In this document: piece after piece, positions 9,752-37,567 of the stretch
Numbering within the stretch: the stretch's first letter is position 1
Layout: every line of letters begins with the position of its first letter
IMG/VR virus record: IMGVR_UViG_3300033067_000589
Location: 1 to 64,000 of that record
Source of the DNA: a virus
Taxonomy: Duplodnaviria > Caudoviricetes
DNA length: 64,000 bases
Strand: one strand, 5' to 3'
The notes under the pieces: generated by a model
Seen by the model: only the letters and a program-made list of their open reading frames with translations
Told to the model about the DNA's origin: nothing
Database searches by the model: none
Made by a program: the position numbers and the translations under genes

Positions 9752-10783
9752 TTAATTAATGAATGAAAAAATATGTGCAATTACATCAACAGTCCAGCCA
9801 TTGCCAATCATTTTATACCTTTGTGAATTAGAAACACATGAGCTGTATCCCATAGGTATAGTCTGTAATATCTCACATTCTTCTGGAGTTAATTTACGAT
9901 ACCTTACGTTTTCAATTTCATATTGTGTTTTATTATCAGTATCATAAACAACATTATTATCTTTCTGTACGGTTGTTAGTGTATTTGTTTTACTATCATG
10001 CCTAACCTCCATTTTTTGAATTATAGAGCCATCTTCTTTGTATCTACCACGAATAGCACCGCACTTGATTACGTTATAAGGTATTCCTTTTTTATAATTC
10101 GCTACAATCGTATTAGATTTATTGTCTTTTGTTGGAGCAGGTGGATGAATCTCCCAGTGATTCCTTCTGCTTCTTATTCTTCTTGACATATAATCTAATG
10201 CTACTTGTGATAAATAATACTTATCTTGTATACTGGAATCATCTATCACATCTGCAAAATATATCTTCTTATCTTCCGGTTGCGTTATACCTTCTATATT
10301 TGTCCAATAGTATCTATTTCTGTTTTGTGCCGAAACTAATGCGCTGTTTATTAAATGTTTACTTACCTTTCCTAATGCCTCTTCTGTATGAAACGTAATG
10401 TATTCCTCAAATTCTCTTTTCATCTTTACGTTCTCTATTAGGAAATAAGCATTTGGATTACTAGATAGTACTTTCTTTATTATATCTAACATTACCCAAA
10501 ATAACTTCCCTCTTTCGTCTTTATCTCCAAGTTGATTCCCAGCTACCGACCACGCTTGACAAGGGAATCCACCAGTAACTAATCCAATGGAAGGCCAATT
10601 AATATCCCATTCTTTCCATTTTGTTACATCGCCTAATTGTATTGTATTAGGATAATTTTGTTGAGTAACTTTTATTGCGTACTTATCTATTTCAGACGCA
10701 TAATAGTTATCATATTTAATACCAGCACGATTAAGAGCAATTTGCCCACAAGACATTCCATCAAATAAACTTAATACATTCAT
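9752..10783 (-). CDS. DNA (cytosine-5)-methyltransferase
   Basis: LSLFDG (motif I), GGFPCQ (IV), ENV (VI), QNRNRYYW (VIII), R.LTPEECE.LQ, RYKMIGNGW (X). Confidence 0.95.
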   Translation of the reverse strand: MNVLSLFDGMSCGQIALNRAGIKYDNYYASEIDKYAIKVTQQNYPNTIQLGDVTKWKEWDINWPSIGLVTGGFPCQAWSVAGNQLGDKDERGKLFWVMLDIIKKVLSSNPNAYFLIENVKMKREFEEYITFHTEEALGKVSKHLINSALVSAQNRNRYYWTNIEGITQPEDKKIYFADVIDDSSIQDKYYLSQVALDYMSRRIRSRRNHWEIHPPAPTKDNKSNTIVANYKKGIPYNVIKCGAIRGRYKEDGSIIQKMEVRHDSKTNTLTTVQKDNNVVYDTDNKTQYEIENVRYRKLTPEECEILQTIPMGYSSCVSNSQRYKMIGNGWTVDVIAHIFSFIN

Positions 10784-10794
10784 GTTTATATATT

Positions 10795-11550
10795 TTAATA
10801 CCCAGAACTTAAAACGTTTACACTTGAACCTTCTAGTCTTCTAGCTATATCAGCTAAATTACCTCCATCTACCATACTCATCACACTTGGCACAGACTTG
10901 TTTTGATGACTCTTAGCAGAAACAATGAGTGTATCAAACTTCTTAGATAGTGTTGTTGTAGATAGTATATTCTTCTTCCAGAAGTCATCGTCTCTCAAAA
11001 ACTTAAATACTAATCTAAATTGTTCTACATCTGCCTGTTCGTTTTTGAGCATATCGTAGATGGGATTTACCCATGTTTTATATCTTGACCTACCTTTTAT
11101 CAAGTTGGATGTACCGCCACTGGATTCAATATTCTGCACAAATAAGCCAAAAAATGCTTTCGTAATCTCAAATGCTTTGACCTCTAGGGTATCCTCAGAT
11201 TCCCTTACTTCTTCAATAGTGACCTCATCTAACTTCTTTGTGGCCCGACCACCAAACTTACCTTTCTTCTTTTTCGTATCCACCTGCTTCTTCTCTCTCT
11301 TTACAAATACTGCATCTTTCACTACAATAACAGCATTACCTGAGAAAGCTAGGTATCCATAATCTAAAAGCTCTTGTAATTCGTCAGAAACATCTTGATA
11401 GATTTCACCTAAGTAGGCATTGATAAAGTCAATATCCTTTTTAGTTTTTCCATCGTAATCTGCCATAGCCATGATGTCTATGTAAATCAACCTAGCTAAT
11501 GGAGATAATCTCGAATCGTGTCTTACAGACTTTGGTGATACTTCAAACAT
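10795..11550 (-). CDS. Phage replication initiator (N-terminal HTH, O/DnaD-like C-terminus); likely start MFEVS at 11550
   Basis: VRHDSRLSPLARLIY N-terminus and DDFWKKNILS...L.KKFD.L C-terminal motif. Confidence 0.75.
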   Translation of the reverse strand: MFEVSPKSVRHDSRLSPLARLIYIDIMAMADYDGKTKKDIDFINAYLGEIYQDVSDELQELLDYGYLAFSGNAVIVVKDAVFVKREKKQVDTKKKKGKFGGRATKKLDEVTIEEVRESEDTLEVKAFEITKAFFGLFVQNIESSGGTSNLIKGRSRYKTWVNPIYDMLKNEQADVEQFRLVFKFLRDDDFWKKNILSTTTLSKKFDTLIVSAKSHQNKSVPSVMSMVDGGNLADIARRLEGSSVNVLSSGY

Positions 11551-11729: not shown

Positions 11730-12380
11730 TTAAATATCCTCTGCTTCTTTTAGGACAGAATAGTCAAACTGTGGATATGCTGCCTTGAATACGTCAATAT
11801 GATATGTATTCCGGTAGCCATACCTTGTACTTGGCATCTTTTTTATCTCATGACCAAGTACGGTGCTATGCTCTTTTAGTCTCCTCCAATTAAAAGTTTT
11901 TTCATGTACACCTACACACTGTGCTACCCTTAAAATAGAAGCCCTTTCCATTGACCTTCCGAGAGCTTCTGTTAAGTTCTTTGCCTTTAATTGAGCCAGT
12001 TCTTTTGCTTCAAACTCATCAGCCCATGCTCTCGCTGCCTCTGCTGGGTTGTTAAAATTAGGCATTGACAATACGTTCATTTTCTTTTCGCACTCAATAA
12101 AGTAATTTCTTGCAGCTTCTCCTTTTTCAGTTCTCGCCATCATGGCTAATCTCTTTGCAAAGTCGATTGTAATAGAAAAATCTTTAGTTTCATTACCGTT
12201 CGTCTTAATGACGAACCCTGCCCAATCCTCATTTTCACGTGAAAAGGGATTATCTTCAATATTTTTCTTAGACCATCTAGTCCAATTGCTTTTATCTAGC
12301 TCAAGAAAATCATACAATTCTCTTGCAGATACTACCTGCTTGCCTCCTTGTGATTTTTCAATCTTAATTAATCCTTCCAT
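11730..12380 (-). CDS. AntA/AntB antirepressor-family protein (likely start MEGLI at 12380)
   Basis: VSARELYDFLE, ENEDW, ITIDFAKRLAMMARTEKGEAARNYFIECE motifs. Confidence 0.9.
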   Translation of the reverse strand: MEGLIKIEKSQGGKQVVSARELYDFLELDKSNWTRWSKKNIEDNPFSRENEDWAGFVIKTNGNETKDFSITIDFAKRLAMMARTEKGEAARNYFIECEKKMNVLSMPNFNNPAEAARAWADEFEAKELAQLKAKNLTEALGRSMERASILRVAQCVGVHEKTFNWRRLKEHSTVLGHEIKKMPSTRYGYRNTYHIDVFKAAYPQFDYSVLKEAEDI

Positions 12381-12515
12381 TTGTAAAATGTGTAAAATAA
12401 AAGAGGGTACTTTATCTAAATGGCTCGCACAGGGGAATAACATAAAACCCCAACCATCTTCGATAAAATACCCTCAAATTTCTTTAATGTCATTTTTAAT
12501 CAGTGTGCGACCGAT
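12381..12515 (-). promoter_or_regulatory. Structured leader RNA homologous to 34777..34905
   Basis: 5' hairpin loop (TCGCACA) complements the TGTGCGA bulge in a long downstream hairpin followed by U-rich sequence. Confidence 0.7.
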
Positions 12516-12567
12516 ATGAATACAACGAATCTCATGATTAAAAAGTTTCGTTTTTCTTAAAATTATT

Positions 12568-12805: not shown

Positions 12806-13231
12806 TTATTTTACCTCATCTTGAACAAATACCTCTCTTAATATCAATAAGTAAACATCTGGATATTTGTCGTTTTCTATTTTTGACACTGGAATGATCA
12901 ACGTGTCTGTCTTTAGAAAGTTAGGTACGCCTCTTGACCTATTGGACTGATTAATGACTTCACGAAGGAAGTAAAGTAATTTCCTGTTGTAAATCCTCGT
13001 ATATCTATGTCTTCCGTTTGTCTCAAATCCATCTTCTCCTTCTCTTGTTTTCCCTATGTAAAGTTCTGGTTCTTTTTCAGTTCCATTGTTGTAAAGAGAA
13101 ATTGATTCTCCCGGATTGATACCTAGTAAATTTGATAAACTCCTATTGATTCCTATTTGATTACCACCCACCGAAAGGCATGGGTGTTTTTTTGACATTT
13201 TACTTAAATCTGTTACATCTATCTTTCTCAT
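12806..13231 (-). CDS. Hypothetical protein
   Basis: 141 aa ORF overlapping the helicase stop. Confidence 0.6.
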   Translation of the reverse strand: MRKIDVTDLSKMSKKHPCLSVGGNQIGINRSLSNLLGINPGESISLYNNGTEKEPELYIGKTREGEDGFETNGRHRYTRIYNRKLLYFLREVINQSNRSRGVPNFLKTDTLIIPVSKIENDKYPDVYLLILREVFVQDEVK

Positions 13232-14643
13232 TATAATTGGGGCATAAACTTCTTCTTGATAAAAAACTCTCTTTTATATAGGGCTGAAAGATAACGACAC
13301 GCATTTAGTTTCACCATCTTTCCATCGTAATTTCCGGGTTCAAACTTATCTCCACTCAACCAGAGTAAATATCTAGTTTCTACCTCCCTTAATCTTTTAC
13401 CCTTATTCTGTCCGAAAGGTACAACTTCAAATCCAGAAGAAAAAGAAGGCTCTACCAAAATTTCTTCTGAATCACCTGCTTTTATCTTTACCCTAAACTT
13501 TCTAGGTACGTCAGAAATAATGTTATTGCCGGACAACATGACCCATCCGTACTCTGGATGTTTCTCGAATCGAAATCCCTGCACTGGGCCAAACTTTTGT
13601 GTATTCCCTGACAAGTCCACAACAATGGCTCTCTTTTTATTTTCATGTATCCTTACTAATCGACCAATATGTTGATACCATATCCTGACAGACCCAGTGG
13701 GTCTTGCGTGAATAATGGCATCTAGTTCCGGAAAGTCAAATCCTGTACCTAGTACATTTACGTTGATTAGTGTACGAATTTTCTTCCTCTTGAAGTCGTC
13801 AATATACATATCTCTGAGATCGGAGGATAAATCACCATACACTGCTTTTGAATCTGGTATGTGAGATTCTAGTTCTTTTGCATAATCTACACTAGGAACG
13901 AAAATTAAAATACTATTGAAATTACACAACCGCTCAACCATTCTTTTTATCTGGTCTGATAGTTTATTCTTATTATAGAAAGCACGAACTGACTTTTCAG
14001 TATATTCCGTTCCCCCTGTGTTCAACTTGAGTTGGCTTGTGTCTTGATTAAAAACACGATATTCTACGTTTGACCAGTATCCATTGTCAATCAACTCTTG
14101 TATTTGAGTTACGTGAATAATATCTCTCCAAAATGAATGATAGTTTTTTGTTACAAACTCAATAACACTTCCTTCTTCCATGGATTGCTTCATTACAATG
14201 GGTGTAGCTGTCAATCCAATTACCTTATTTGCCTCGATTCCTTTGACAATCTTATGAATACTCGATCCCCTTTTATATGCTTGGTCACATTCATCAACAA
14301 TTACTGTTTTTACTCCTAATTGAATCAAAGTGTCTATCTCATTTACTACTGACATGGGTGTTGCAAATGTAATCTTTCCTATTTTCTTAGACTTGAGAGA
14401 GCTTGAATAGATGTGTGCTTTATTTCCGTAACTGATATACTTGTTGTAATTCTGAATCAATAATTCCTTACTTGGTTGTAATACTAAGACTGGCCCATTT
14501 GCTAACATTGCTGCTTGTGCGATTAGAATACTTTTACCAGCTCCTGTTGGTGCTACGACCACACTAGGCAAATCTGATTTATTATTCATGTAGCTTTCAA
14601 TCGCTGCTACTGCGCTTTTCTGATAACTTCTTAGCTCAAACAT
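13231..14643 (-). CDS. SF2 DEAD/DEAH-box helicase (UvsW/RadD-like) with C-terminal DUF3820-like motif
   Basis: APTGAGKS, VDECD, GLTATP, NVNVLGTGFDFP, QHIGRLVR; C-terminal PFGQNKGKRL.EV...YL.WL. Confidence 0.92.
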   Translation of the reverse strand: MFELRSYQKSAVAAIESYMNNKSDLPSVVVAPTGAGKSILIAQAAMLANGPVLVLQPSKELLIQNYNKYISYGNKAHIYSSSLKSKKIGKITFATPMSVVNEIDTLIQLGVKTVIVDECDQAYKRGSSIHKIVKGIEANKVIGLTATPIVMKQSMEEGSVIEFVTKNYHSFWRDIIHVTQIQELIDNGYWSNVEYRVFNQDTSQLKLNTGGTEYTEKSVRAFYNKNKLSDQIKRMVERLCNFNSILIFVPSVDYAKELESHIPDSKAVYGDLSSDLRDMYIDDFKRKKIRTLINVNVLGTGFDFPELDAIIHARPTGSVRIWYQHIGRLVRIHENKKRAIVVDLSGNTQKFGPVQGFRFEKHPEYGWVMLSGNNIISDVPRKFRVKIKAGDSEEILVEPSFSSGFEVVPFGQNKGKRLREVETRYLLWLSGDKFEPGNYDGKMVKLNACRYLSALYKREFFIKKKFMPQL

Positions 14644-24752: not shown

Positions 24753-27700
24753 ATGGGAAAGCAAAGAAGTAAGGCAGATATTCCAGTAAATGTAAGTGCG
24801 TATAGCCTAAGAGACGTAAATGAAACCTTAGTCGAAAATAGACTAAGGGATTCTGGATTTAAAAATGTACCAAGAAGTGCAGTACAATCTATTGTAGCAA
24901 GGGGTGGTATTGCGAGTAAAGATAGAAAAACTGGTGAAGCTATCAATATACCCGTTTCAAGTTTACCAACACAAAAGACGTATGAGACCATAAAAGGAGA
25001 TGTTGAGAGTGCATCAGAACTCTTCTTTCAAGGGCTAACAGATATTCCAGTAAGTGTAAGTGCAGGTATTCAACAAATGCTTGCAGGCACAGACAAGCAA
25101 AAGTTAGATGCCATTAGAAAATGGCAAGACGACAATACAAATCAACTTTCATTTGCAGCCAAAAGGATGCTTGAAAATGAAGAGATGAGTATTGAGAAAT
25201 TTATGTTTACCGCAGGTAATACCGTTGGACAAATAGTTGGCTCAATGGCAACTGCTGCTGCTGGTACGGCTATTGGTGCTACTGCTGGTACTGCTGTGGG
25301 TGGCCCAGTTGGTACAGTTGGTGGTGCTATTGGTGGATTCTTGGGAGGTATGGCTGTGAATATGCCGTTTATGTACAACTCCTTATTAAATTCAGCTAGA
25401 GATGCAGGGATAAATGATGCAGATGCAGTAGGGTATGCTTATGGCGCAGGCATTGGACTTGCTGCGCTAGAGGCAGTTCCATTATCTAAAATTGCAGGTT
25501 GGACAGCAAAATCAGTAGCTCCGTCACTTACAAAGAGTGTCCTTAATAAAATGACAACCAAGTACGGTGCTAAAAGTGCAAATGAACTTATTGAAAGGAT
25601 TGGTGCAGACAGGTTCAATAAAGAGGTTGCTGTTGGAATATATAAGGCTGCAAGAAATGGAATTGCAGATAGGGTTATAGGGAAGGCTGGTGCAGTAGGC
25701 ATGGGGGCTTTGGCAGAAGGTGGTCAAGAGATTACCGAGTTTTATTTAGAAAAACTAGCTCAAGCAACCTATGATTCAACAAGAGGAGAGGGTAGGCAAG
25801 CTGGCAAAGGAGCTTTTGGTACTCAATTTACTCAAGAAGAGTTTTTTGGCAAAAAGGCTAGAGACGAGGCGTTTTGGAATGGTGTATTTGGTGCTGTTGG
25901 TGGTGGATTTGCCGGAACAGTACAAGCTGTATCTTCTCCACTTTATAAAACTGGTGTTTACGATACAATCGACACTTTTGTAAAAAGAGGTAAAACTGTT
26001 GATGAAGCTGTTGCTGCGTTGAATGGAATTATTGATAGGAGAATTGGTGAAGGGGAGTTAGCACAAGATATTGCAGACACCGCAAAATCAGCCATCCAGA
26101 ATGTAGCACAATCATATAATAAGATTGGCGGTAAATTTGATGAGCCAGAATTTAGATATGTTGTTTACGAAAGAATATCTAAGAAAGATGATTTAGTAAA
26201 AGAACTTGGCGCACTAGAATCTAAGAAAGCTGAGATACAGGGTATTATTTCTCAAAATCAAGGTGATGCAGACATCTATACTGTGGATATGATGGAGATT
26301 GATAAGTTAATTGACCAAAAACAAAGGCAATTAGACTTTACATCTACTTGGCTGAAAGACTATACTCAAAAGTATTACGATAATAAGAAAGCAAAAAATA
26401 CCGCTCGTGGTCAATTTATTGATGATTCGATCAACGACTTTATTGTAAGAACAGATAGTTTTGACAAAAAGAAACAGACACCTTACGAGTTTGCAAAAGA
26501 AGCAAACGATGCGTACAATGCAGGAATGAAGGAAATTGATTTACAGTACGACTCCCAAGTGAAATCAATGAATATTACTTCATTGAATGAGAATGTAAAT
26601 CAAGACTTCGATGAGATTGATACAATAAAAACAAAAGTAAGAACAAATCCTTCCTCAAATGAAAATCCAGAGTTTGCTGATGTTGTTTTGGCTACCGACG
26701 AGGATGGGAATATAGCTATAAGAAGAGAGAGTATTATTGATGGGCAATCAAAAGTTGATTACATTCCAATCGCCAATACTCCACAATACGAACCAGTAGT
26801 GGCTCGTGCAAAAAGTTACTTTGAAAATAGAGATAGTTTTGAGGGTATTGCATCTAAGTTAGTTCTTGGTCAAGAATTAACAGAAGATGAAGCTGAACTG
26901 TATGAGGATTTTGCAGATAACATTGATGGTTATAAGGAAGAAATGGAACGTGCTGCAAATTTCAATGCAAATTTGGCTTTAGCAAAAATGTTTGCAAAGC
27001 CAATAAAAGAAGCATTGCAAGGTATGGCCCCAGCTATTCAACGCTACCAAGAGAGGGTTGCAGAAATTGATGAGACATTAGCTAGAGATGAAAATATACC
27101 TGCATCAAATCAAGACCTAGGTAGTACAGAGAAAAACAAAAAACTATCTGCAAATGAGATAGCCAAGTTAAATCAAAACAAACAGGCCCTACTTGCTGAG
27201 ATTGAAAAGTACAATAAAGAACTTCAAAGGGTTACAGAGATGAATCCCGATGATTCTCCATTAGAAGAGTTGAACAGTAAAGAGCTTGCACTCTATCAAA
27301 CAAGAATGGCAGAGGTGGATATTCTTTTCAATGAGATGGTAGAGAAGTTCCTTACAAACAAAGCAAGTAATCTTGATGATTTCTATGGAACATACGGACA
27401 GTATGGATTCCTTAGAAATATGGAGGAATATGCAAAAAGTATAGCAACTCAAAAAAGACTATTTATGGATTCGTATAATCCAGAAATAGCAAATACAATC
27501 AATAAGATTATTGACAAAGCGAGGATTCTTGAAGCAAAAATGCAAGAGGTTCGTGCTGGTATCGAGGCTGCAAAACAAAAACAAGAAGAGGCGAAGGCTG
27601 CTGCGGAACAAATAAAACTAGAGAAGCAAAAGGCAAAAGAAGCTAAAAAGCTACTAGATGAGGCTAATGCTAAACTTGACAAAGAAAAGAAAAAGAAACA

Positions 27701-30700
27701 AACAAAGAAAGGAGAACCTAAAAAAGAGGATACTCCACAAGAACAAGAGGTTCAAGAAGAACTAACCGAAACAGTAGCTGAACTAGAACAAGTAGTAAAA
27801 GAAGCTGGTGATATTATCATAGAGGCAGCAAACAACATAGAACAAATAAGAGGAGAATTAACAAATGAACAGCAATTACCAACAGATAGTACAGAAAATG
27901 AGGGCGGAGTACAATCAGTCCAGACATCTACTACTCCAATATCAGGAACAAGTGAGACTACTCTCCAAGAGAATGTTACCCAAGGAGAAATCACTCCAGA
28001 GGGAGAGGGTACAGCAACTATGGCAACAGATGCAACAGAATCCATCGTGCCAAGTGGAAGTGATGATACTGCAAGCACGCAAGGAGGAGGTACGCAAACG
28101 CAACTTCCGAATGTTAGCGGAGATGTAAAAACACAAGAAGAAAAAGTGAGTGATGCACTTGAAGTATTGAATAGTGAAAAATTCAACGAACTATCAAGTA
28201 GTGATGTTGATATGCCATCACTTGATAATAAGAGTGCGGATAGCCTAGAGTCGCTACTTGCACAAAAGCAAGAACTACTAAAAGGCAATCTATCTCCAGA
28301 AGATAGGCAATTAGTTCAAGACCAAATAGCCGAAATAGAAGGTCAAATCAAACAAAAGGCTATTGAGAATGATGAAATTGTAACCGATACTAAACCAGAG
28401 GTTCAAGCACTTAATGCTTACAATAACATACCAGATGTTGCTATCAAGGTAAAGATTCAAGATACTAAAGGGTTAATTAAGGTAACAAGGGGCAAACTAG
28501 GAGATTCACTTAATGACGAAACAAGAAATGTAATCATAAGTGACATAAAGCAAGTTGGCGACAAAATACAAGTAGTACTGTATGGTGATGAAAATGTAGT
28601 AAACCTTACAAAGAATAGCGAAAACAAGGTTATTGCAAGTAATCAGTTCAACGAGCCTATCACAGTAAAAATGAATGTAGATGAATTTGTGTCTATGTTC
28701 ACCTTTGGGAATAGTAGTGAACTTCAAAGGAGGGCTACACTTGAAAATCTAGGAATAACTGAAAAGCCTCAATCGGAAGGTACGGTTACTATTCCAAAAG
28801 GAACTAATGTGCAAATCGCATACGAACTCGGAAATGAGGTAAAAGGTAAAAGCGCAACACTACAAAAGAGCCTTAAAATAGACTCAAATAATTACAAGTT
28901 AAATACGGATATTGGCTTAAATACAGGGGCTATTTTAAGTATTGCTGATGCAACCGGAAAAATAATTTACCAAAGAGGTGCAACAACTCAAACGCAAGAA
29001 CAAGCTACATCTGCACAACAAGGAAGTACTGATATTCAAAACCAACTCTTGGAAATCAAGAGAAATGGGTCAATGACTTTTGATTCTGGTAGTCAGAAGT
29101 TCTTCAATAGATTTGCTGCTGGTATTGAAAGGATATTCCCCGGAGTAAGCATTGGTGTATTATCTGAACAAGACTGGATTGATTCTGGATTAAGCCCATC
29201 ATCAAGAGGTGCTTTCAATAGAAAGACAGGTCAAGTGATGCTAAGAGAATCTATGTATGATGGAAGTACATTCGTACATGAGGTTGGTCACGCTATAATG
29301 AAAATCATTGGAGATGTAGATACCAACCTTTACAATGCAATGCTTGATGCAGTAGAGGGTACAAAATACGAAGCATACGTAAGGGATAATTATCCTAATC
29401 TAACAACTAGGGAAGAGATACTTTCAGAGGCGATGGGGTATGCTATTCAAGACAAAGGTGTCAAAATGCAATCAAGACCAATGGCTGCATTTAGAGATAT
29501 GATGACCAAGGCATTTAATGCTATCAAGAAATTCATGGGTTATCGTACCAATAAAGATATTGGAGATATGACGCTTGATGATTTTACATCTGAGGTAGCA
29601 GGAATAATGTTTGGCATTAAAGATGCAGACATATTCTTAGATGAGTTTGATTTGACTCAAAATGCAGAACTGAATAATTATTTTGAGACAGAAGGCAATA
29701 CTGACGAATCTAGTATCCAGTACCAGTACTTCAAATTCCAAGCTAATCAACAACAGGTAGCAAAAGGGATAATGAGGGGAAGTGAGTATGCTACATTTTC
29801 AGGTAGAGTTTCGGCTGGTGAAGCTACAATGCAAGAAACGATTGATACATTAAAGTCAATCGTAGATTCGCCAATACTTGAAAGTCAAATGGCAAGCGCA
29901 CTTACTACTGGTAGCGGTAAAGATAAGTTTGATGGATATTCGTTTATTAAGGCAAACCTAAATGACTTTGCTACTGACTACTATAATATCGTAACAAATA
30001 CAGATGCAAAAAATCTAACTCCTTTGCAAAATTCCGATATTGTAGAACTTGGCAACACAATGTTAGAGACGTATGCAGACCAACACAAAAGGTCACATAT
30101 TGAAGTGGTACAAGACGGTAAACAAGTTCAAGTATTTGTAGATCCGGCAAAAGAAGCATCTAATGTAAATAAAAATGTAAGGTCATTCTTTGATGCAGCC
30201 AGAGCTAAAGGAATTATGGCTAAATATACAGCCAAGTTCCTTACTGGAAGTATGTTCTCAAACCTATCCAACATGGATACTGTTGCACAGATGTTAAGTG
30301 GAGACAATGGTATAATGAAAGGTATTCAAGATTTGAGAGTACACATGAATAAGGTTGCAGCTAGAGTTCATAATGGCATGAGGAAAGCTATTTATGATGC
30401 AACAGAAGAATTGACTCAAATTGCAAGAAATAGAGGTAGGGTTTCTAAGTTAAAAGAAGGTAATTTTAAGCCACTTGAAGAAGAGGTAAACGTTTCGTTC
30501 CATAATAACTTTACAGGAGATGCTGAATTAGGAAATAGTAATTTGACACTAGGTCAATTAGCCTACATATACTTAGCGAGACAAACTCAGGTTGATAGTG
30601 ATTTTCAGAGAAGAAATGCAGGACTACTAAAGAGTATTGCGAACATTCAAAAGGAAATAGATAAGGCTAAAAAGATAGGCAATAGCAAGAGAGTATCTTT

Positions 30701-32693
30701 ATTGACCACTGAAATGGATGCAAAGCAACTAGAACTCAAGAATCTAAAAAGAGACCTAGATGCTTCTGATATTATCTATGACCCAACCGTTAAGGATGGA
30801 AGCCACTTATCTAAATATGTCATATCGAACAATAAAAGAACTAACAGAGGTATATCCTTTGAATTAGAAAACGAGCAAAAAGTAACTATACTATTAACTC
30901 GTGACCAAATGAAGGTTATTGATGATATGTTCGAGAATGGTGGTAAGTATGAAGAGGAAATGAAAGTACTAAGAAGATTTTGGAGTTCAGATGCTGTAAA
31001 AAATGTGTTCACAGAAGCAAATGAGGTAAAATACAGGATTGAAGGCGGAAGAGCACAAGAAGTGTTTGGCACTTATATTCCAATTAGAAAAGACACTGCT
31101 GATTCATTAAGTGAAACGTCAGTCGAACCTAACGTAAAGAATATGAGATTCGTTCTCGAGAGAACTGGTCTTGCAGGAAGAATAGTTGGATTAGATATGT
31201 TTTCCATTATGAATGAATACATGGAGCAAAATACAGAATATATCGCCAATGCCGAATATCGTGATTCGCTTCGTACTTATAGAAACTCATTGACTACTGA
31301 TGATACCTCAAAAAACAGGCTTGTATCCGGTGCTGATATGGAGATTGTGGATGCCATTAATACTACATTGAAGGGTATAGATGATATGGTGAGGTCTATT
31401 GACAGTGGGCTTAAATCGAGAAGAGATGCGAATCGTGAATTGGATAAAGCTGGTATTCCTCATAGGATATATAATTTGATACTATCTAATTTCTCTAAAG
31501 CTGTATTCTCATTTAACCTTGGTAACTTATTCAAACAGTCTGCTGGTTATTTAGCTGGTCTTGGTCAGGGTATTGTAGATGATAAATACATATACAGAGA
31601 GGTGGGATATATAGGTAAAATTATTCCAGCATCAATGAAGACATACATCACGAATGATGGTAAGCTATTTGGTAAAGATTTTAATGGATTTTTCAAGGTA
31701 AAAGCAATCGAAAGGGAAATGGAATACCTTGAGAAACATGAATATCATTTTGCTGACATTCTAAGACGTATTCAAGATGAATCTGCATATACCGGAAATA
31801 TAGAACTAGACTCTCTTGATTTTGTATTAAGGAAAAAAGGTAAACTAGGTGATGTGTACCGAGCTGCTAATAAGACCATATTCAAAGGTTTATCTGCAAT
31901 GAGAATGAATGATGCTGCTGTTATCATTGCTTTTGTAAGGGCTGCCAGAGCTGAGGTTACAGATTTAGTTAGAAATGGCAAACTATTGGATGCTGAAAAT
32001 AATCCAATTACTGACGTAGAATCCCCGAAAGCACTGAGATTAATTGCGGAAAAGGCGAGTGAACTTGTGTATAGAACCAACAATATGTACATGGAGAATG
32101 ATAAAACTCCACTACAAAGAAGTAATAATATTCTACATAAATCTATTGGTCTATTTTCATCACAGCCACAAAAAATTTCAAATCTTTTTGCGCAAAGGTT
32201 TATGTCTGCTGCTCAAGATGGGTTTAAGAATGAAGAGAAAAACAAGACAATGAGATCGACTATGGTATGGGCGATGCTTGCTGGTGCTACCCTACAATCG
32301 TCTATAACAATCATGTATGGTATTCTAAGAAACGGATATGATGAAGAAAGAGAGTACGAGTTGGATTTCTTCTACGAATTTATTAGAAACTTTACTGGTA
32401 TGTTCCCATCGTTGTCTGTGGAAGTTTTAAATGGACTTCTTAGTGCACTAGATAACGCACCTTGGACTGGAGATATTGCATCAAATCCTGTATTTAGCTT
32501 ACTAGAAAATGCAATAAAAGCTACTGCTGCATTGAAAGAGTCTATGGATGAAGACAAGCCAGAGTTTATTAGAGACAGAAAGTACCAAGAAGGCGTAAGG
32601 CAAGGTGCTGATGCTCTTGCCAAGATATTTGGCGCACCAACGGTAGCGGTGAACTTTATCGTAAAACAGGCACTACTAGAGGATAAAAAATAA
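24753..32693 (+). CDS. Large polyvalent ejection protein with zincin-like metallopeptidase motif
   Basis: 2646 aa; Gly/Ala hydrophobic N-terminal segments, coiled coil, acidic linker, FVHEVGH (HExxH), helical C-terminus. Confidence 0.7.
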   Translation: MGKQRSKADIPVNVSAYSLRDVNETLVENRLRDSGFKNVPRSAVQSIVARGGIASKDRKTGEAINIPVSSLPTQKTYETIKGDVESASELFFQGLTDIPVSVSAGIQQMLAGTDKQKLDAIRKWQDDNTNQLSFAAKRMLENEEMSIEKFMFTAGNTVGQIVGSMATAAAGTAIGATAGTAVGGPVGTVGGAIGGFLGGMAVNMPFMYNSLLNSARDAGINDADAVGYAYGAGIGLAALEAVPLSKIAGWTAKSVAPSLTKSVLNKMTTKYGAKSANELIERIGADRFNKEVAVGIYKAARNGIADRVIGKAGAVGMGALAEGGQEITEFYLEKLAQATYDSTRGEGRQAGKGAFGTQFTQEEFFGKKARDEAFWNGVFGAVGGGFAGTVQAVSSPLYKTGVYDTIDTFVKRGKTVDEAVAALNGIIDRRIGEGELAQDIADTAKSAIQNVAQSYNKIGGKFDEPEFRYVVYERISKKDDLVKELGALESKKAEIQGIISQNQGDADIYTVDMMEIDKLIDQKQRQLDFTSTWLKDYTQKYYDNKKAKNTARGQFIDDSINDFIVRTDSFDKKKQTPYEFAKEANDAYNAGMKEIDLQYDSQVKSMNITSLNENVNQDFDEIDTIKTKVRTNPSSNENPEFADVVLATDEDGNIAIRRESIIDGQSKVDYIPIANTPQYEPVVARAKSYFENRDSFEGIASKLVLGQELTEDEAELYEDFADNIDGYKEEMERAANFNANLALAKMFAKPIKEALQGMAPAIQRYQERVAEIDETLARDENIPASNQDLGSTEKNKKLSANEIAKLNQNKQALLAEIEKYNKELQRVTEMNPDDSPLEELNSKELALYQTRMAEVDILFNEMVEKFLTNKASNLDDFYGTYGQYGFLRNMEEYAKSIATQKRLFMDSYNPEIANTINKIIDKARILEAKMQEVRAGIEAAKQKQEEAKAAAEQIKLEKQKAKEAKKLLDEANAKLDKEKKKKQTKKGEPKKEDTPQEQEVQEELTETVAELEQVVKEAGDIIIEAANNIEQIRGELTNEQQLPTDSTENEGGVQSVQTSTTPISGTSETTLQENVTQGEITPEGEGTATMATDATESIVPSGSDDTASTQGGGTQTQLPNVSGDVKTQEEKVSDALEVLNSEKFNELSSSDVDMPSLDNKSADSLESLLAQKQELLKGNLSPEDRQLVQDQIAEIEGQIKQKAIENDEIVTDTKPEVQALNAYNNIPDVAIKVKIQDTKGLIKVTRGKLGDSLNDETRNVIISDIKQVGDKIQVVLYGDENVVNLTKNSENKVIASNQFNEPITVKMNVDEFVSMFTFGNSSELQRRATLENLGITEKPQSEGTVTIPKGTNVQIAYELGNEVKGKSATLQKSLKIDSNNYKLNTDIGLNTGAILSIADATGKIIYQRGATTQTQEQATSAQQGSTDIQNQLLEIKRNGSMTFDSGSQKFFNRFAAGIERIFPGVSIGVLSEQDWIDSGLSPSSRGAFNRKTGQVMLRESMYDGSTFVHEVGHAIMKIIGDVDTNLYNAMLDAVEGTKYEAYVRDNYPNLTTREEILSEAMGYAIQDKGVKMQSRPMAAFRDMMTKAFNAIKKFMGYRTNKDIGDMTLDDFTSEVAGIMFGIKDADIFLDEFDLTQNAELNNYFETEGNTDESSIQYQYFKFQANQQQVAKGIMRGSEYATFSGRVSAGEATMQETIDTLKSIVDSPILESQMASALTTGSGKDKFDGYSFIKANLNDFATDYYNIVTNTDAKNLTPLQNSDIVELGNTMLETYADQHKRSHIEVVQDGKQVQVFVDPAKEASNVNKNVRSFFDAARAKGIMAKYTAKFLTGSMFSNLSNMDTVAQMLSGDNGIMKGIQDLRVHMNKVAARVHNGMRKAIYDATEELTQIARNRGRVSKLKEGNFKPLEEEVNVSFHNNFTGDAELGNSNLTLGQLAYIYLARQTQVDSDFQRRNAGLLKSIANIQKEIDKAKKIGNSKRVSLLTTEMDAKQLELKNLKRDLDASDIIYDPTVKDGSHLSKYVISNNKRTNRGISFELENEQKVTILLTRDQMKVIDDMFENGGKYEEEMKVLRRFWSSDAVKNVFTEANEVKYRIEGGRAQEVFGTYIPIRKDTADSLSETSVEPNVKNMRFVLERTGLAGRIVGLDMFSIMNEYMEQNTEYIANAEYRDSLRTYRNSLTTDDTSKNRLVSGADMEIVDAINTTLKGIDDMVRSIDSGLKSRRDANRELDKAGIPHRIYNLILSNFSKAVFSFNLGNLFKQSAGYLAGLGQGIVDDKYIYREVGYIGKIIPASMKTYITNDGKLFGKDFNGFFKVKAIEREMEYLEKHEYHFADILRRIQDESAYTGNIELDSLDFVLRKKGKLGDVYRAANKTIFKGLSAMRMNDAAVIIAFVRAARAEVTDLVRNGKLLDAENNPITDVESPKALRLIAEKASELVYRTNNMYMENDKTPLQRSNNILHKSIGLFSSQPQKISNLFAQRFMSAAQDGFKNEEKNKTMRSTMVWAMLAGATLQSSITIMYGILRNGYDEEREYELDFFYEFIRNFTGMFPSLSVEVLNGLLSALDNAPWTGDIASNPVFSLLENAIKATAALKESMDEDKPEFIRDRKYQEGVRQGADALAKIFGAPTVAVNFIVKQALLEDKK

Positions 32694-33371: not shown

Positions 33372-33977
33372 ATGGCGTTCAAAACTCTAATCAAGAAAAG
33401 AAAAACATCCGGCACATCAAGTATATCAAAATCTAAGTTTGCAAAGTTAGATAAAAGAACACGAGCGCACGATATTCAAACAGAATACAGTTCATCAGAC
33501 GTTGAAAATATTTCAATTACAGCAAGATATGAAGATGGTATTTTAGAGTTTACTACAAGAGGGAGATGGATTTCATTAAACTTCATTATGACCAAATCAC
33601 ATTGGGCTAAAGATTCTGGAATTAAGGAGATAACCAAGAAAAAGGTAAGAGAGGCAGTAAAAGGATTGAATGTAAAACTATCAGACTTTGTAATTATACT
33701 AAGATACAACTCAAGATTGGATGACCATAATACTGTAATGATGCCAAAGTATTTTACAGACTCAATTAAGCACAACTGGCTAAAGAATAATAACGGAAGA
33801 ATATTGGTAGATGCACAAGGAAAAAGAATAGTTGAATACGAAGGAATCATAACAGAAGATAATAAGAACTTTTCAAAGGGAACATTACTTATTCCAGATG
33901 CTACTTTACCACACGACACATATATAATGAAATACGTTCCATTTGATAAGATAAAAGACGTATTGACTAAATTATGA
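33372..33977 (+). CDS. RusA-like Holliday junction resolvase
   Basis: SLN....HW, RLDDHN..M.K...D, GII.EDN pattern; TATATTTG box at 33341-33348 upstream. Confidence 0.6.
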   Translation: MAFKTLIKKRKTSGTSSISKSKFAKLDKRTRAHDIQTEYSSSDVENISITARYEDGILEFTTRGRWISLNFIMTKSHWAKDSGIKEITKKKVREAVKGLNVKLSDFVIILRYNSRLDDHNTVMMPKYFTDSIKHNWLKNNNGRILVDAQGKRIVEYEGIITEDNKNFSKGTLLIPDATLPHDTYIMKYVPFDKIKDVLTKL

Positions 33978-34648
33978 AAGTATTTAAAAAGGGCGATCAA
34001 GTTATTGCAGGTAGATACAATAAAGATGTATGTTGTTTTATTCCTGATTACGTAAAGTATGTATTGAGGGAGAGATTGTCGAGCGACTACTATGGCATTA
34101 TTACAACAGTAGGCATACGAGAGATTGTATTCAAGTTGAGTATGGATTACGAGAAAGACGATGACAATAAAGTCTTGGTTTACGACAATAAGAAGAACTT
34201 TGAGATAGTTAATCAGTATGTCGAAATGCTCTATAAGCAAGATATTCGTATGCAGACAGGTTTTGGTATGATGGCTAAGACAAAGGATTTCTTGGATGTG
34301 GCATACAAAATGATTGATGAGTACTTCGTAAAAGAGAACTTACCAGAGATATTGGAAGACGTAGAGATACATCATTCAAAGCCAGTATACAATATTAAAA
34401 GAGTAGTACCAATAGGAAGGTGGATGCACGATGGCATTATGATAGATGGAGCGAGAAGGTATTTACCGTTTAATACGGTATCCAATGTGGTAAAGGCTTG
34501 TGCCAATAGGATAAGAACACGAATGGAAGAAATTTATCCTTACGCTTATGAGTGGAAAAGTACCGGAGGTGATAAGAAAAAACGGTCTGAGTATATTAGA
34601 TTTTGGCATTATGAATTACACACATTTGGTGGAAAAGAGGTTTCGTAA
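33974..34648 (+). CDS. Hypothetical protein
   Basis: 224 aa, ATGA-coupled to the RusA-like gene. Confidence 0.65.
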   Translation: MKVFKKGDQVIAGRYNKDVCCFIPDYVKYVLRERLSSDYYGIITTVGIREIVFKLSMDYEKDDDNKVLVYDNKKNFEIVNQYVEMLYKQDIRMQTGFGMMAKTKDFLDVAYKMIDEYFVKENLPEILEDVEIHHSKPVYNIKRVVPIGRWMHDGIMIDGARRYLPFNTVSNVVKACANRIRTRMEEIYPYAYEWKSTGGDKKKRSEYIRFWHYELHTFGGKEVS

Positions 34649-34702
34649 CTTATTGATTATTAGGCTCGCTCATTTTAGGAAACCTGATAATCAATAAGTT
34701 AC
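34645..34702. repeat. 16-bp perfect inverted repeat with 26-nt spacer
   Basis: GTAACTTATTGATTAT (34645-34660) / ATAATCAATAAGTTAC (34687-34702). Confidence 0.85.
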
Positions 34703-34776
34703 AAACTATAAGAAATAAATTATTTTTTTTTACAACTTGTGAACTTTTTACGGACAAGTCTAGTTATACATACATA

Positions 34777-34905
34777 ACGGCTGGACACCGTAAAAAACAA
34801 AAAAGAAATTTAAGGGCATTTTGTTGAAAGCAACTGGGGTTTATTTGTTTCCCCTGTCCAAGTTGCTGAAACGAATTGCCCTTTTACATTTTATATATTT
34901 TACAA
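34777..34905 (+). promoter_or_regulatory. Structured leader RNA homologous to 12381..12515
   Basis: ACGG-CTGGACA-CCGT hairpin; loop complements the TGTCCA bulge (34855-34860) in a long downstream hairpin. Confidence 0.7.
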
Positions 34906-35640
34906 ATGGAAACATTGTCAATTGGTTTACCATCAAACGCAATCACATCTCTTCAACTGCTAGAGCAAATTAATATCTTTAGGCTTGAAGATGGGAAGGG
35001 TGAATTGTTACACAAGAATCTTCTATCTATAATTCGAGACGAATTTGAAGAGGAGATTAACGAGCTAAAAATTCAGCCCGTTACTTACAAGGATAAAAAA
35101 GGGGAAGAAAGGGTAATGTTTGAACTAACATTATCTCAAGCAAAGCAAGTCCTAACAAGAGAATCCAAGAGGGTTCGCAAGGCGGTGATTGCATATATTG
35201 AAAAGTTAGAAAAGGCATTTCCCAACTTTACTGACCCAGCCGAAGCTGCCGAAGCATGGGCGAAGGAATACAGGGCAAAACAAAAGGCATTAGAAGAGAA
35301 AAAACAACTAGAACTAAAGGTACAAGAAGATGCTCCAAAGGTAGAGTTCTTTGATGACCTAGTGGATAGAAAGCTAAATCTAAATTTCAGAACAACAGCA
35401 AAAGAGATTGGTGTCAAAGAATCTGTATTCATCCAGTATCTCTTAGATAAAAAATATATTTACAGAGGTAGTGGTAATAAGCTATTTCCCTATGCACAAT
35501 ACGTAGGAGAAGATAGCCTATTTGTTATTAAGGAACAAAAGACAGAAAAGTGGGCTGGCACACAAACACTAATTACACCAAAAGGTAGGGCTAGGTTCTT
35601 AATCCTACTTGGAGACAAAGGACAGCACCTTCTTAATTAA
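34906..35640 (+). CDS. Rha-family regulator fused to a KilAC/ANT C-terminal domain (likely start METLS at 34906)
   Basis: ITSLQL, HKNLL..IR, Y.DKKGEER.MF.L; APKVEFFD, TAKE, GTQTLITPKGR. Confidence 0.88.
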   Translation: METLSIGLPSNAITSLQLLEQINIFRLEDGKGELLHKNLLSIIRDEFEEEINELKIQPVTYKDKKGEERVMFELTLSQAKQVLTRESKRVRKAVIAYIEKLEKAFPNFTDPAEAAEAWAKEYRAKQKALEEKKQLELKVQEDAPKVEFFDDLVDRKLNLNFRTTAKEIGVKESVFIQYLLDKKYIYRGSGNKLFPYAQYVGEDSLFVIKEQKTEKWAGTQTLITPKGRARFLILLGDKGQHLLN

Positions 35641-35674: not shown

Positions 35675-37567
35675 TTACCTGCCAAATGAAAACATATTCT
35701 CACTTCTACCAAACCCGAAGTCTACATAAGCGGTTGGCACAAACTCATTATCAACTTCTTCATCTGTTCTTATTGTTCCAAGGTTCTTTGTTTTCTCAAG
35801 TGCCAATAATACCAAGTGGAAAGCTGATGTTATATCGTTGTTTACTTCTGACCTCCAATAGTTAAATGAATCCATCAGGGCTGTATGTGATATTCTTAAA
35901 TGCCTGTTTGCCTCAAAGTACTTAATACCAAGTACAGTCATGTCTGCTACGACTGAATCTGAAAGCCTTACACCAATTTCTCCATTTACATAAAGTAAAT
36001 TTTGCATAATACCCTTTTCTCTGGCGTATCCAATAAAACCTGCTGATTCATTATGCTCATACATCACCTTTGGGTCGTAGTATAAAATTGCCTTATAGAA
36101 CTCTTGCCAATCAAGCATACGGTTTTTATAGCGACCAAGATAAAAAGCAACTGGCAAGTCTGATAATTCACTATACACTGATGGTCTTCTGTATATAACC
36201 ATGGAGTTTAATGAATCTGAATAGGTTACTTTATCTTTATACACGTCATCTATCCCAGCTACAAAAGCATTTTCTACATCTTCCATATTATACCCAGCAC
36301 CTTCTAGTACCTTCCAGAATCCGGTAGGATCTTCTTTGAAAATAACCCTACCTGTCATCTTTCCTCTTACGTCTTTTTCTTCTACAAACTTTCCTGTAAT
36401 CCAATGTGAATCTAAGTCATGTTCTAGTATATGTAGATAATGAGAGTCTATCTTTTCTTTGTCGTACTCTGTGTCATTGCTAGGAATAAATGATTCATAA
36501 ACAGTAAGTGGGTTCTCTTGAATCTTCATTTTTAAATCCTCTGGCTTTAGGTCTGGAGAATTTCTTTCTTCTTTAATAACCTTTTCTGCCTCTTCCCTTA
36601 GTGATATACCTGTGTAGTAATCAATATAACCTTGATAGCAAATTGATGCCGGAGTAAATATGGTTTTGAATTTATTACCTTTTGGTCTAAGAAAGTTATC
36701 TTTATAGTCTGTGGACTTGTTATTGATACTATCCGATGTACCTCCAACTAAAAGCATACCTACTTTATAATCCCCTTGCCTTAGTGTATCATTTGCTGAA
36801 CCAATAAAAGGGGATAGGTGTGTGTGAATACCTGCCTCGACTACAACAATCAATCCTAGTGCATCTCCACGAACACCAGAACCTTTGGCATCTACAATAG
36901 TTAGGTTGATTGAATTTACGATAGAGAAATTTCGACCATCTATCCAGTAGCCTTGAGATATGACTTCTGCATTATCTACAACTATATCGAGTTCTTTATC
37001 ATCATCATCTCTTTTAAAGAATGGGTGGATATATTCATACATCTTTTTAAGTCTCCTTCTTTCTTTTTCGATGATTGGCTTATTGGGGTATGCTCTGAGT
37101 ATATTTTGATTTTGATTAAATAAGAACCACCAGAGGGTTATCCCCCACTCGGAGGTAGACCATCCCTTACGACGACCTTTGGCCACAATGATATTATCAG
37201 CATCTTTAAATCCGTACTTTGTCATTCCAGACATTCCGTACCAAACTTTATCAAAATACACTTTATCTCCATCTCGATAATAAGGCGAGTAATACCCTTC
37301 TCTTCCTGTGAGTTCATCAAAGATACTTACCTTCATAAAATTTAAGAAAAAGTAATAGATAGGGTTGATAAAAACACCATCTGGGGCTATATACCCTTCT
37401 GTGCATCTTCTTAATTGTTCAACCCACCAATCCCTATCGCTCGCGAAAGAAGATGATGTAGGATTTGGTAGGTCTGGTACTCTTTCTTGAAGAACTGGTC
37501 TGTATTTGACTTGTGCTGAATTAGGGTCTTTTAAAATCCTATCTTTATCTTTCCTTTTTAATTTCAT
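35675..37567 (-). CDS. terL: Terminase large subunit (crAss-like)
   Basis: YYFFLNF, Walker A KGRRKGWS, Walker B VVVEAG, GGT coupling motif, AGIDD nuclease motif. Confidence 0.9.
   Translation of the reverse strand: MKLKRKDKDRILKDPNSAQVKYRPVLQERVPDLPNPTSSSFASDRDWWVEQLRRCTEGYIAPDGVFINPIYYFFLNFMKVSIFDELTGREGYYSPYYRDGDKVYFDKVWYGMSGMTKYGFKDADNIIVAKGRRKGWSTSEWGITLWWFLFNQNQNILRAYPNKPIIEKERRRLKKMYEYIHPFFKRDDDDKELDIVVDNAEVISQGYWIDGRNFSIVNSINLTIVDAKGSGVRGDALGLIVVVEAGIHTHLSPFIGSANDTLRQGDYKVGMLLVGGTSDSINNKSTDYKDNFLRPKGNKFKTIFTPASICYQGYIDYYTGISLREEAEKVIKEERNSPDLKPEDLKMKIQENPLTVYESFIPSNDTEYDKEKIDSHYLHILEHDLDSHWITGKFVEEKDVRGKMTGRVIFKEDPTGFWKVLEGAGYNMEDVENAFVAGIDDVYKDKVTYSDSLNSMVIYRRPSVYSELSDLPVAFYLGRYKNRMLDWQEFYKAILYYDPKVMYEHNESAGFIGYAREKGIMQNLLYVNGEIGVRLSDSVVADMTVLGIKYFEANRHLRISHTALMDSFNYWRSEVNNDITSAFHLVLLALEKTKNLGTIRTDEEVDNEFVPTAYVDFGFGRSENMFSFGR

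Follow-up and report, generated by a model that had tools for sequence, protein, structure and literature searches.

The window analysed here, a stretch of 64 kb, is the first part of an 86-kb IMG/VR virus record and carries two similar leaders, one on each strand, both of which run directly into the start codon of an antirepressor-type gene. An earlier annotation made from the sequence alone, referred to below as the first-pass annotation, had proposed that the leaders at 34777-34905 (plus strand) and 12515-12381 (minus strand) share one architecture and that antirepressor-type genes lie behind both, and our analysis agrees with it on both counts: the two copies, named leader A and leader B, have one fold made of the same parts, and the genes behind them match the KilAC/ANT and AntA domains. 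The features of the two loci are as follows.

34777-34905, plus strand: leader A, whole, with the ATG of its gene at 34906
34777-34791, plus strand: 5' hairpin P1 of leader A (ACGG/CCGT) with the 7-nt loop CTGGACA
34782-34787, plus strand: key of leader A, TGGACA, the 5' strand of the pairing PK1
34795-34801, plus strand: linker of leader A, AAACAAA, the 5' strand of the probable pairing PK2
34802-34811, plus strand: conserved single-stranded motif of leader A, AAAGAAATTT (family consensus AAGAnATT)
34812-34883, plus strand: long hairpin of leader A, with lower, middle and inner stems and the look of an intrinsic terminator
34836-34839 and 34851-34854, plus strand: GGGG and CCCC of the inner stem of leader A
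34844-34850, plus strand: 3' part of the apical loop of leader A, TTTGTTT, the PK2 partner of the linker
34855-34860, plus strand: lock of leader A, TGTCCA, a 3' bulge adjoining the inner stem and the 3' strand of PK1
34882-34901, plus strand: U-rich tail of leader A, 3' of the hairpin
34906-35640, plus strand: gene with a KilAC (ANT) C-terminal domain (KilAC/ANT, 3.9e-20) and a Rha-like N-terminus (weak Rha match)
34645-34705, plus strand: near-perfect hairpin, its stem about 20 bp long (GTAACTTATTGATTATTAGG ... CCTGATAATCAATAAGTTAC), then a long T-run
12515-12381, minus strand: leader B, whole, with the ATG of its gene at 12380
12499-12515, minus strand: 5' hairpin P1 of leader B, loop TCGCACA
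12504-12510, minus strand: key of leader B, TCGCACA (PK1)
12483-12494, minus strand: linker of leader B, AATGACATTAAA, the 5' strand of PK2
12485-12476, minus strand: motif of leader B, AAAGAAATTT
12403-12475, minus strand: long terminator-like hairpin of leader B
12436-12447, minus strand: apical loop of leader B, TTTTATGTTATT, the 3' strand of PK2
12425-12431, minus strand: lock of leader B, TGTGCGA, a bulge and the 3' strand of PK1
12385-12404, minus strand: U-rich tail of leader B, CTTTTATTTTACACATTTT
11730-12380, minus strand: gene with an AntA/AntB antirepressor domain (AntA, 1.9e-17)

In leader A, the U-rich tail is followed by ACAAATGGAA, which carries the ATG at 34906. The loop of the 5' hairpin and the bulge of the long hairpin are exact reverse complements in either copy, over 6 bp in leader A and 7 bp in leader B, and the letters of key and lock differ between A and B at three positions on either side; shuffled keys matched these pairing lengths in 2.7% (A, 6 bp) and 0.6% (B, 7 bp) of the trials. 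Both leaders are more stable than their shuffles (z = -3.2 for A and -5.6 for B), and 8 of the 32 nested pairs have changed on both sides between A and B and are still paired. As such, the compensatory changes in the stems that had been described earlier are real, and so is the loop-bulge pairing with copy-specific letters, which covaries in A, B and 13 further members of the family described below. Several G-U pairs mark the leader strand as the relevant one. In the window, the pattern TGGGG-N8-16-CCCCTGT is found at only these two sites, and it did not occur in any of 100 shuffles.

Leaders A and B belong to an uncatalogued family of folded RNA leaders in Bacteroidota phages, with at least 15 distinct sequences, A and B included, all on phage contigs from metagenomes. 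The first-pass annotation had suggested searching with a model made of both copies, and such a model (R1, from A and B alone) recognised four further phage loci with E-values of 9e-9 to 4e-4, in regions taken from upstream of Rha/KilAC homologues in IMG/VR. The rest of the 15 came from a second model (R2) and a DNA pattern of the 5' part, in which the three central letters of the key were left free and the lock was excluded. With R2, leader A scored 140 bits, leader B 127 bits and the remaining members 58-115 bits. A and B themselves have all the features by which the family is defined, namely P1, AAGAnAUU, a three-part hairpin with a GGG/CCC inner stem, an adjoining lock and, on the 3' side, a U-run and then an antirepressor-type gene. 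Most of the member records are fragments by CheckV estimate. Two copies each were found in the record of this phage, in G002 and in G006, and five in G008, and all copies within any one record carry different keys. The latter record, G008 (IMGVR_UViG_3300047555_000022), is 52.6 kb long and has direct terminal repeats; its five leaders (L356, L359, L360, L361 and L362), with five different keys and each with its own TATATTTG box, precede KilA-N, AntA, AntA and Rha/KilAC genes and a 67-aa Rha-like stump. In G005 (9899-10372), from which L275 comes, the leader and its Rha gene follow closely behind an integrase gene, and at least one carrier therefore looks temperate; an integrase was not found in the examined parts of G000, G003, G006 and G008.

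The family was also looked for in catalogues and genomes. With Rfam 15, the window had no match at the gathering score, no family including C4 matched around A or B even at E <= 10, and six related loci had no match at E <= 1, so that the comparison with the c4/C4 families proposed in the first-pass annotation gave no sign of kinship. The family is undescribed in Rfam and in the papers that we searched; a survey of structured RNAs in IMG/VR (PMC10690425) may include it unnamed. The pattern AAAGAAATTT..GGGG..CCCCTG gave 13 matches in IMG/VR, all of them due to chance, GGGG..CCCCTGT..ACAAATGG gave more than 120 chance matches in GTDB genomes, with R1 recognising none of the 80 loci examined, a stricter pattern gave no matches in JGI metagenomes, and the family pattern gave 11 chance matches in GTDB genomes, none of which was confirmed by R2. 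Likewise, a blastn search of GenBank phages with A, B and L356 as queries returned only short chance matches, R1 with default filters had no match among the first 18 Rha/AntA loci, and R2 had none in 5 Bacteroidota and 151 Flavobacteriales genomes with few candidates scored per genome.

Across the family, the nested helices are paired in 91.2% of the cells and 27 of the 32 pairs show changes on both sides (17 distinct rows). Controls slid along the sequence reached 38-48%, and none of 500 shuffles attained the observed result, a comparison to be read with some reserve, as the family is small and partly interrelated and shuffle-based figures overstate its independence. Missing covariation among homologues had been named in the first-pass annotation as evidence that would speak against its proposal; the homologues do covary, both in these 27 nested pairs and in PK1. 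The latter pairing, between the loop of P1 and the bulge, consists of 6-8 contiguous Watson-Crick pairs in all 15 members, starts 0-1 nt after the inner stem and has at least 12 different spellings. Cognate pairings have a mean of 6.7 bp and -10.4 kcal/mol, versus 3.8 bp and -5.7 kcal/mol for non-cognate ones, and the four members that were found by the lock-blind pattern all have matching locks. In a column-wise count with a model of PK1 only (R3), 69% of the cells were paired, a figure that understates PK1 because the model-made alignment contains a 1-nt register shift between subgroups, and the analysis per sequence is thus the better measure. PK1 is a crossing long-range pairing kept through compensatory change, which is what is expected of a pseudoknot, and we regard it as established by this covariation. 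The key has no other partner than the bulge within the hairpin, which lies 45-50 nt upstream of the ATG. In six close pairs of sequences, PK1 changed no more rapidly than the remaining RNA, and diversifying selection on the key was rejected on this ground.

A second pseudoknot, PK2, is probable. It joins the 3' portion of the apical loop to the A-rich linker that immediately precedes AAGAnAUU, as seen for AAACAAA (34795-34801) with TTTGTTT (34844-34850) in leader A and, elsewhere, for AGAUUUAAA with UUUAAAUCU, GCAAAAA with UUUUUGC and UGCUU with AAGCA. Cognate duplexes have a mean of -5.9 kcal/mol versus -3.4 kcal/mol for non-cognate ones (permutation p < 1e-4, subject to the reserve given above), and close variants of leader A have GG inserted after 34796 together with T>C at 34848 and 34849. 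The strands of PK2 are A/U-rich sequence, and we rate this pairing as less certain than PK1. PK2 is absent from the description in the first-pass annotation. A different helix proposed by RNAalifold, between the A-rich linker and the U-run, was rejected, as it is poorly kept (66% paired).

The 3' half of the leaders has the anatomy of an intrinsic terminator. In all 15 members, a hairpin of -24 to -35 kcal/mol is followed by a U-run, a short A/U-rich spacer and the ATG, with hairpin and U-run placed 8-25 nt before the start codon, and all 15 combine the stable hairpin, the G+C-rich base and the adjoining U-run that make up such a terminator. Bacterial polymerase stops at sites of this type, where a G+C-rich stem is followed by a U-run, and the anatomy suggests that transcription would terminate here; the premature termination that had been suggested earlier is a sensible mode of action for such a hairpin. 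A simple terminator scan misses these hairpins, as they go beyond its limits for loop and stem, and a sigma-70 promoter scan and a terminator scan of the phage gave nothing above shuffles. On the 5' side, 13 of the 15 members have a TAnnTTTG box (TATATTTA in one copy) whose end lies 5-6 nt upstream of P1, which places the key at the very 5' end of the RNA in these 13. Directly upstream of A and B (34724-34776 and 12516-12565) there is no canonical TAnnTTTG box; in its place, both have GAACTTTTTA and ..CATA(A/T)CGG in common, and the word GAAACTTTTTA, present upstream of both, does not recur as a promoter motif in this phage. According to Pfam, the downstream genes encode KilA-N, AntA with or without KilAC, Rha plus KilAC, or Rha-like plus KilAC proteins. 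A full antirepressor-type gene lies directly behind 13 of the 15 copies, at a fixed short distance, and the two others precede only short open reading frames, of 51 aa behind L348 and the 67-aa Rha-like stump behind L362. A leader peptide was considered and rejected, since the short open reading frames within the leaders show no conservation.

Natural variants of leader A, found on public contigs from seawater, alkali-sediment and animal-gut metagenomes, keep key and lock and change the middle stem in a compensatory manner, with 34831 C>T accompanied by 34865 G>A and 34833 A>G by 34863 T>C. Past ACAAATGGAA, these variants enter different genes, one of them AntA-like, and the leader is thus a portable unit that is joined to its gene at the start codon. 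The key TGGACA stands before a Rha-type gene in the window and before an AntA-type gene in a relative. On the relatives' contigs the leader is held in common and the coding sequences differ right after ATGGAA (34910/34911). Recombination seems to happen at the start codon itself (join at 34906).

The surroundings of the leaders bear on the type of phage and on its host. The hairpin at 34645-34705, flanked by the gene upstream (33974-34648) and by leader A, is probably a strong terminator that would end the transcription unit upstream of leader A. The gene of leader A is the last before the convergent terminase gene (35675-37567, minus strand). The relatives of the large terminase among crAss-like phages are only distant ones, at 23% identity, and the terminase as single query in IMG/VR returned no relatives. 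Beside these genes, an open reading frame of 2646 aa (24753-32693) without a PHROG match follows genes for large virion proteins. To judge from these sequences, the phage may be a far relative of the crAss-like phages and the open reading frame may encode a giant virion protein. Around the AntA unit we noted genes for a DNA methyltransferase (9752-10783), a DnaD-like loader (10795-11550) and a superfamily-2 helicase (13231-14643); with the helicase upstream and the DnaD-like loader downstream, leader B lies inside a replication module. The genes of this phage have no Shine-Dalgarno sequences, their upstream regions are A-rich, and TAnnTTTG boxes stand before many of them, which together amount to a Bacteroidota style of expression, and these expression signals point to a Bacteroidota host.

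Given this anatomy, we propose that the family consists of cis-acting 5' leader RNAs of about 125-140 nt, which probably serve as attenuators with a terminator hairpin docked to a 5' domain. The parts that are kept most strictly, namely the promoter, a fold of about 120 nt, the G+C stem, the U-run and the gene, are those of an attenuator. The RNA consists of the small 5' hairpin P1, then the A-rich linker with AAGAnAUU and then the hairpin of about 70 nt with its adjoining U-run, and PK1 and the probable PK2 connect its 5' part to the distal end of the terminator-like hairpin. According to this model, transcription from the promoter just upstream would mostly stop at the hairpin and U-run, the antirepressor-type gene (Rha/KilAC, AntA or KilA-N) would be expressed by read-through only, and the docked 5' domain would set or regulate the level of this read-through, possibly with the help of a fold-recognising factor from phage or host. 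Another possibility is that PK2 strains against the base of the terminator stem and that read-through thereby becomes tunable, as the connector of 8-11 nt from the PK2 strand to the lower stem is too short for a straight helix stack, which leaves a sharp bend or such strain; simple geometry of this kind suggests no more than that either is possible. The sequences show the family, its nested fold, the two long-range pairings with their covariation, the location behind a promoter box and ahead of these genes, and the portability of the leader, whereas termination, the control of read-through and its input signal are inferred. Speaking against attenuation, the base pairs of the terminator stem are not contested by either pseudoknot, and an alternative fold of the classical antiterminator type is not visible in the leaders.

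The role given to key and lock in this model differs from the one suggested in the first-pass annotation, in which the leaders were orthogonal RNA switches whose key sets the specificity and which possibly respond to trans-acting RNAs from co-infecting phages. This part of the earlier interpretation found no support in the comparison. Key and lock lie in the same RNA with the key made first, one and the same key (TGGACA) serves different genes, the 6-8 bp of the pairing can be crossed with almost no linker, and the position right after the inner stem, the presence of a second pseudoknot next to PK1 and a divergence no faster than that of the remaining RNA all argue for an intramolecular, structural pseudoknot. 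A sign of trans-acting RNAs from co-infecting phages was not found among these sequences, where each key has its lock within the same molecule.

Other functions of the leaders have to be weighed against attenuation in cis. An immunity riboregulator of the c4/CI/CA type would use the same parts differently: the leader, terminated or processed, would build up and act in trans, and its key would pair with the lock of any same-type leader being transcribed, whether from the same or from a co-infecting phage, and enforce termination there, with the 6-8 nt of the key as specificity determinant. The position before antirepressor-type genes and the combination of a leader-encoded RNA with a terminator are indeed the architecture of the c4/CI/CA systems, and the keys within a genome all differ (2 in G000, 2 in G002 and 5 in G008), a finding that counts against a reading in cis only, as it is also predicted by a model of trans action or of avoided cross-talk. 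Moreover, cognate pairing within a genome is longer than non-cognate pairing, with one combination that ties at 6 bp, and L359 and L360 of G008, which are about 85% alike, differ in key and lock by one compensated pair. However, any trans RNA would have to outcompete the cis partner, since the lock has its own key 70 nt upstream, and the lock lies within a hairpin and away from a ribosome site. The lack of faster divergence in PK1, the single key that L168 and L193 have in common despite stems that differ throughout, the recurrence of TGGACA before a Rha-type and an AntA-type gene and the absence of a match to the Rfam C4 model are likewise at odds with an immunity function, which we hold to be distinctly unlikely. 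A stand-alone small RNA gene, with a promoter, an RNA of about 120 nt and a terminator, would act elsewhere, for instance by binding a protein, and read-through into the gene behind it would be incidental. The consensus promoter box together with the strong hairpin and U-run would suit such a gene, as would a double-pseudoknot fold that exceeds the needs of an attenuator and the presence of L348 and L362 before nothing but a short open reading frame and a Rha-like stump. Still, this explanation is quite unlikely in view of the 13 of 15 copies that lie right before a complete antirepressor-type gene with a short and constant spacing, the join of leader and gene at the start codon that is kept through gene swaps, and the fact that a free-standing copy was not seen among the members.

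A purely post-transcriptional role, without termination, would let the fold hide the 5' end, stabilise the mRNA or offer a U/A-rich landing site for ribosomes that does not depend on a Shine-Dalgarno sequence. It would fit the location of the key within the first 10 nt or so of the RNA in 13 members, the A-rich upstream regions of the genes of this phage and their want of Shine-Dalgarno sequences, and the leader of the Riemerella phage PT03, whose 5' end forms a 15-bp helix with the interior of the hairpin, but the G+C-rich stem base and adjoining U-run seen in all members have the look of an intrinsic terminator, and we judge this role to be very unlikely. Finally, the leaders might be repeats that matter at the level of DNA only, as recombination cassettes or as inverted repeats bound by a protein, with no function as RNA. 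Portable modules in several copies per genome, with relatives' contigs that diverge exactly after ACAAATGGAA, would be expected of such repeats, but G-U pairs confined to one strand, extensive compensatory change in the helices and the two pseudoknots, and the fixed orientation relative to promoter and gene would not. The pure DNA-repeat reading is contradicted by the covariation, and we find it scarcely credible.

Returning to attenuation in cis, a more elaborate version might be envisaged in which the double pseudoknot is a sensor of a new class whose input, be it a ligand, a protein or a competing RNA, determines whether the terminator closes, with the 6-8 nt of each copy as its address. 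We regard this version as unlikely at present, and offer it as speculation; if it were true, the antirepressor-type genes of one phage, or of co-infecting phages, could be switched independently by address.

Few accessory genes of phages are as common and as poorly understood as Rha, AntA, KilA-N and KilAC genes, and, to our knowledge, nothing is known about the control of antirepressor-type genes in Bacteroidota phages. The present study adds a conserved leader, supported by covariation and present in up to five copies per genome, between a promoter of host type and such genes, and the leader family might thus provide a concrete handle on how they are controlled. For RNA biology, it represents a compact fold in which a terminator-like hairpin appears to be tied to its own 5' end by two pseudoknots.

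The best-known RNA of this kind is c4 of phages P1 and P7 (immI operon), a leader element of an antirepressor operon with short complementary segments that covary between related phages; its loops pair with sites that cover the ribosome site of the open reading frame ahead of ant, and the C4 antisense RNA is processed, acts in trans and is about 77 nt long. The c4 RNA of P1/P7 represses Ant synthesis (PMC8546580). Like c4, leaders A and B are encoded before antirepressor-type genes and have short covarying complementary segments. Unlike c4, they match the Rfam model neither in sequence nor in structure, their key pairs within its own RNA, in the terminator-like hairpin, and not with the ribosome site of an upstream open reading frame, they give no sign of processing or trans action, and the host phylum appears to be Bacteroidota. 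Membership in the C4 family was rejected on the model match and on the location of the partner site.

The CI RNA of P4 and the CA RNA of N15 act through premature termination in the leader of anti-immunity genes, with control of an antirepressor in N15. As in these systems, both complementary partners of leaders A and B reside in the leader RNA and a putative terminator lies ahead of the genes, and the presence of key, lock and hairpin with U-run in one leader would be compatible with the anatomy of P4 CI and N15 CA. The differences are a single lock per key, a compact pseudoknot of 6-8 bp, a second pseudoknot and the absence of detected homology. With riboswitches and protein-dependent attenuators, the leaders share a promoter-proximal, conserved, pseudoknotted fold and a hairpin with U-run just before the gene, but they differ in that antiterminator pairing is not visible, it is the terminator hairpin that supplies loops to the pseudoknots, and the invariant nucleotides are few (AAGAnAUU among the unpaired positions, and the GGG/CCC inner stem). 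In the PeSL cassettes of T4-type phages, a promoter and a stem-loop flank shuffled accessory genes. Our leaders resemble them as repeated promoter-plus-hairpin units before accessory genes, with exchange of genes behind a constant cassette, whereas their RNA fold with two pseudoknots is under clear selection and their genes are all antirepressor-like. A type III toxin-antitoxin locus was also considered and rejected, as there is a single unit per gene instead of a tandem array and the genes downstream are of the KilA-N, AntA, Rha and KilAC types.

In addition to these established systems, other Bacteroidota phages have leaders of a comparable logic. Before further Rha/AntA genes (L164/L249, L160/L016, L019/L020 and L032) we observed unrelated-looking leaders in which a 5' segment is complementary to the loop of a hairpin with U-run ahead of the ATG, by pairings such as GTACGAA/TTCGTAC, GTACCAG/CTGGTAC and CGCCAAGCA/TGCTTGGCG; those of L164, L160 and L019/L020 are distant analogues of different sequence. 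A parallel in a cultured phage is the KilAC/antirepressor leader of Riemerella phage vB_RanS_PT03 (MZ995504.1; L374), with a TATATTTG box, the motif AAAGATATT, a hairpin with U-run and the ATG, and with a 5' end that, like the key in PK1, is complementary to a segment in the 3' half of the hairpin. The complementarity of PT03 is perfect over 15 nt (1953-1967 with 2057-2071), as opposed to 6-8 nt in the family, and its best score with R2, 15.9 bits at E 0.24, is below detection, so that we regard this leader as a likely distant analogue and not as a proven member. Such an apparent analogue in cultured Riemerella phages opens a route to experiments on leaders of this type.
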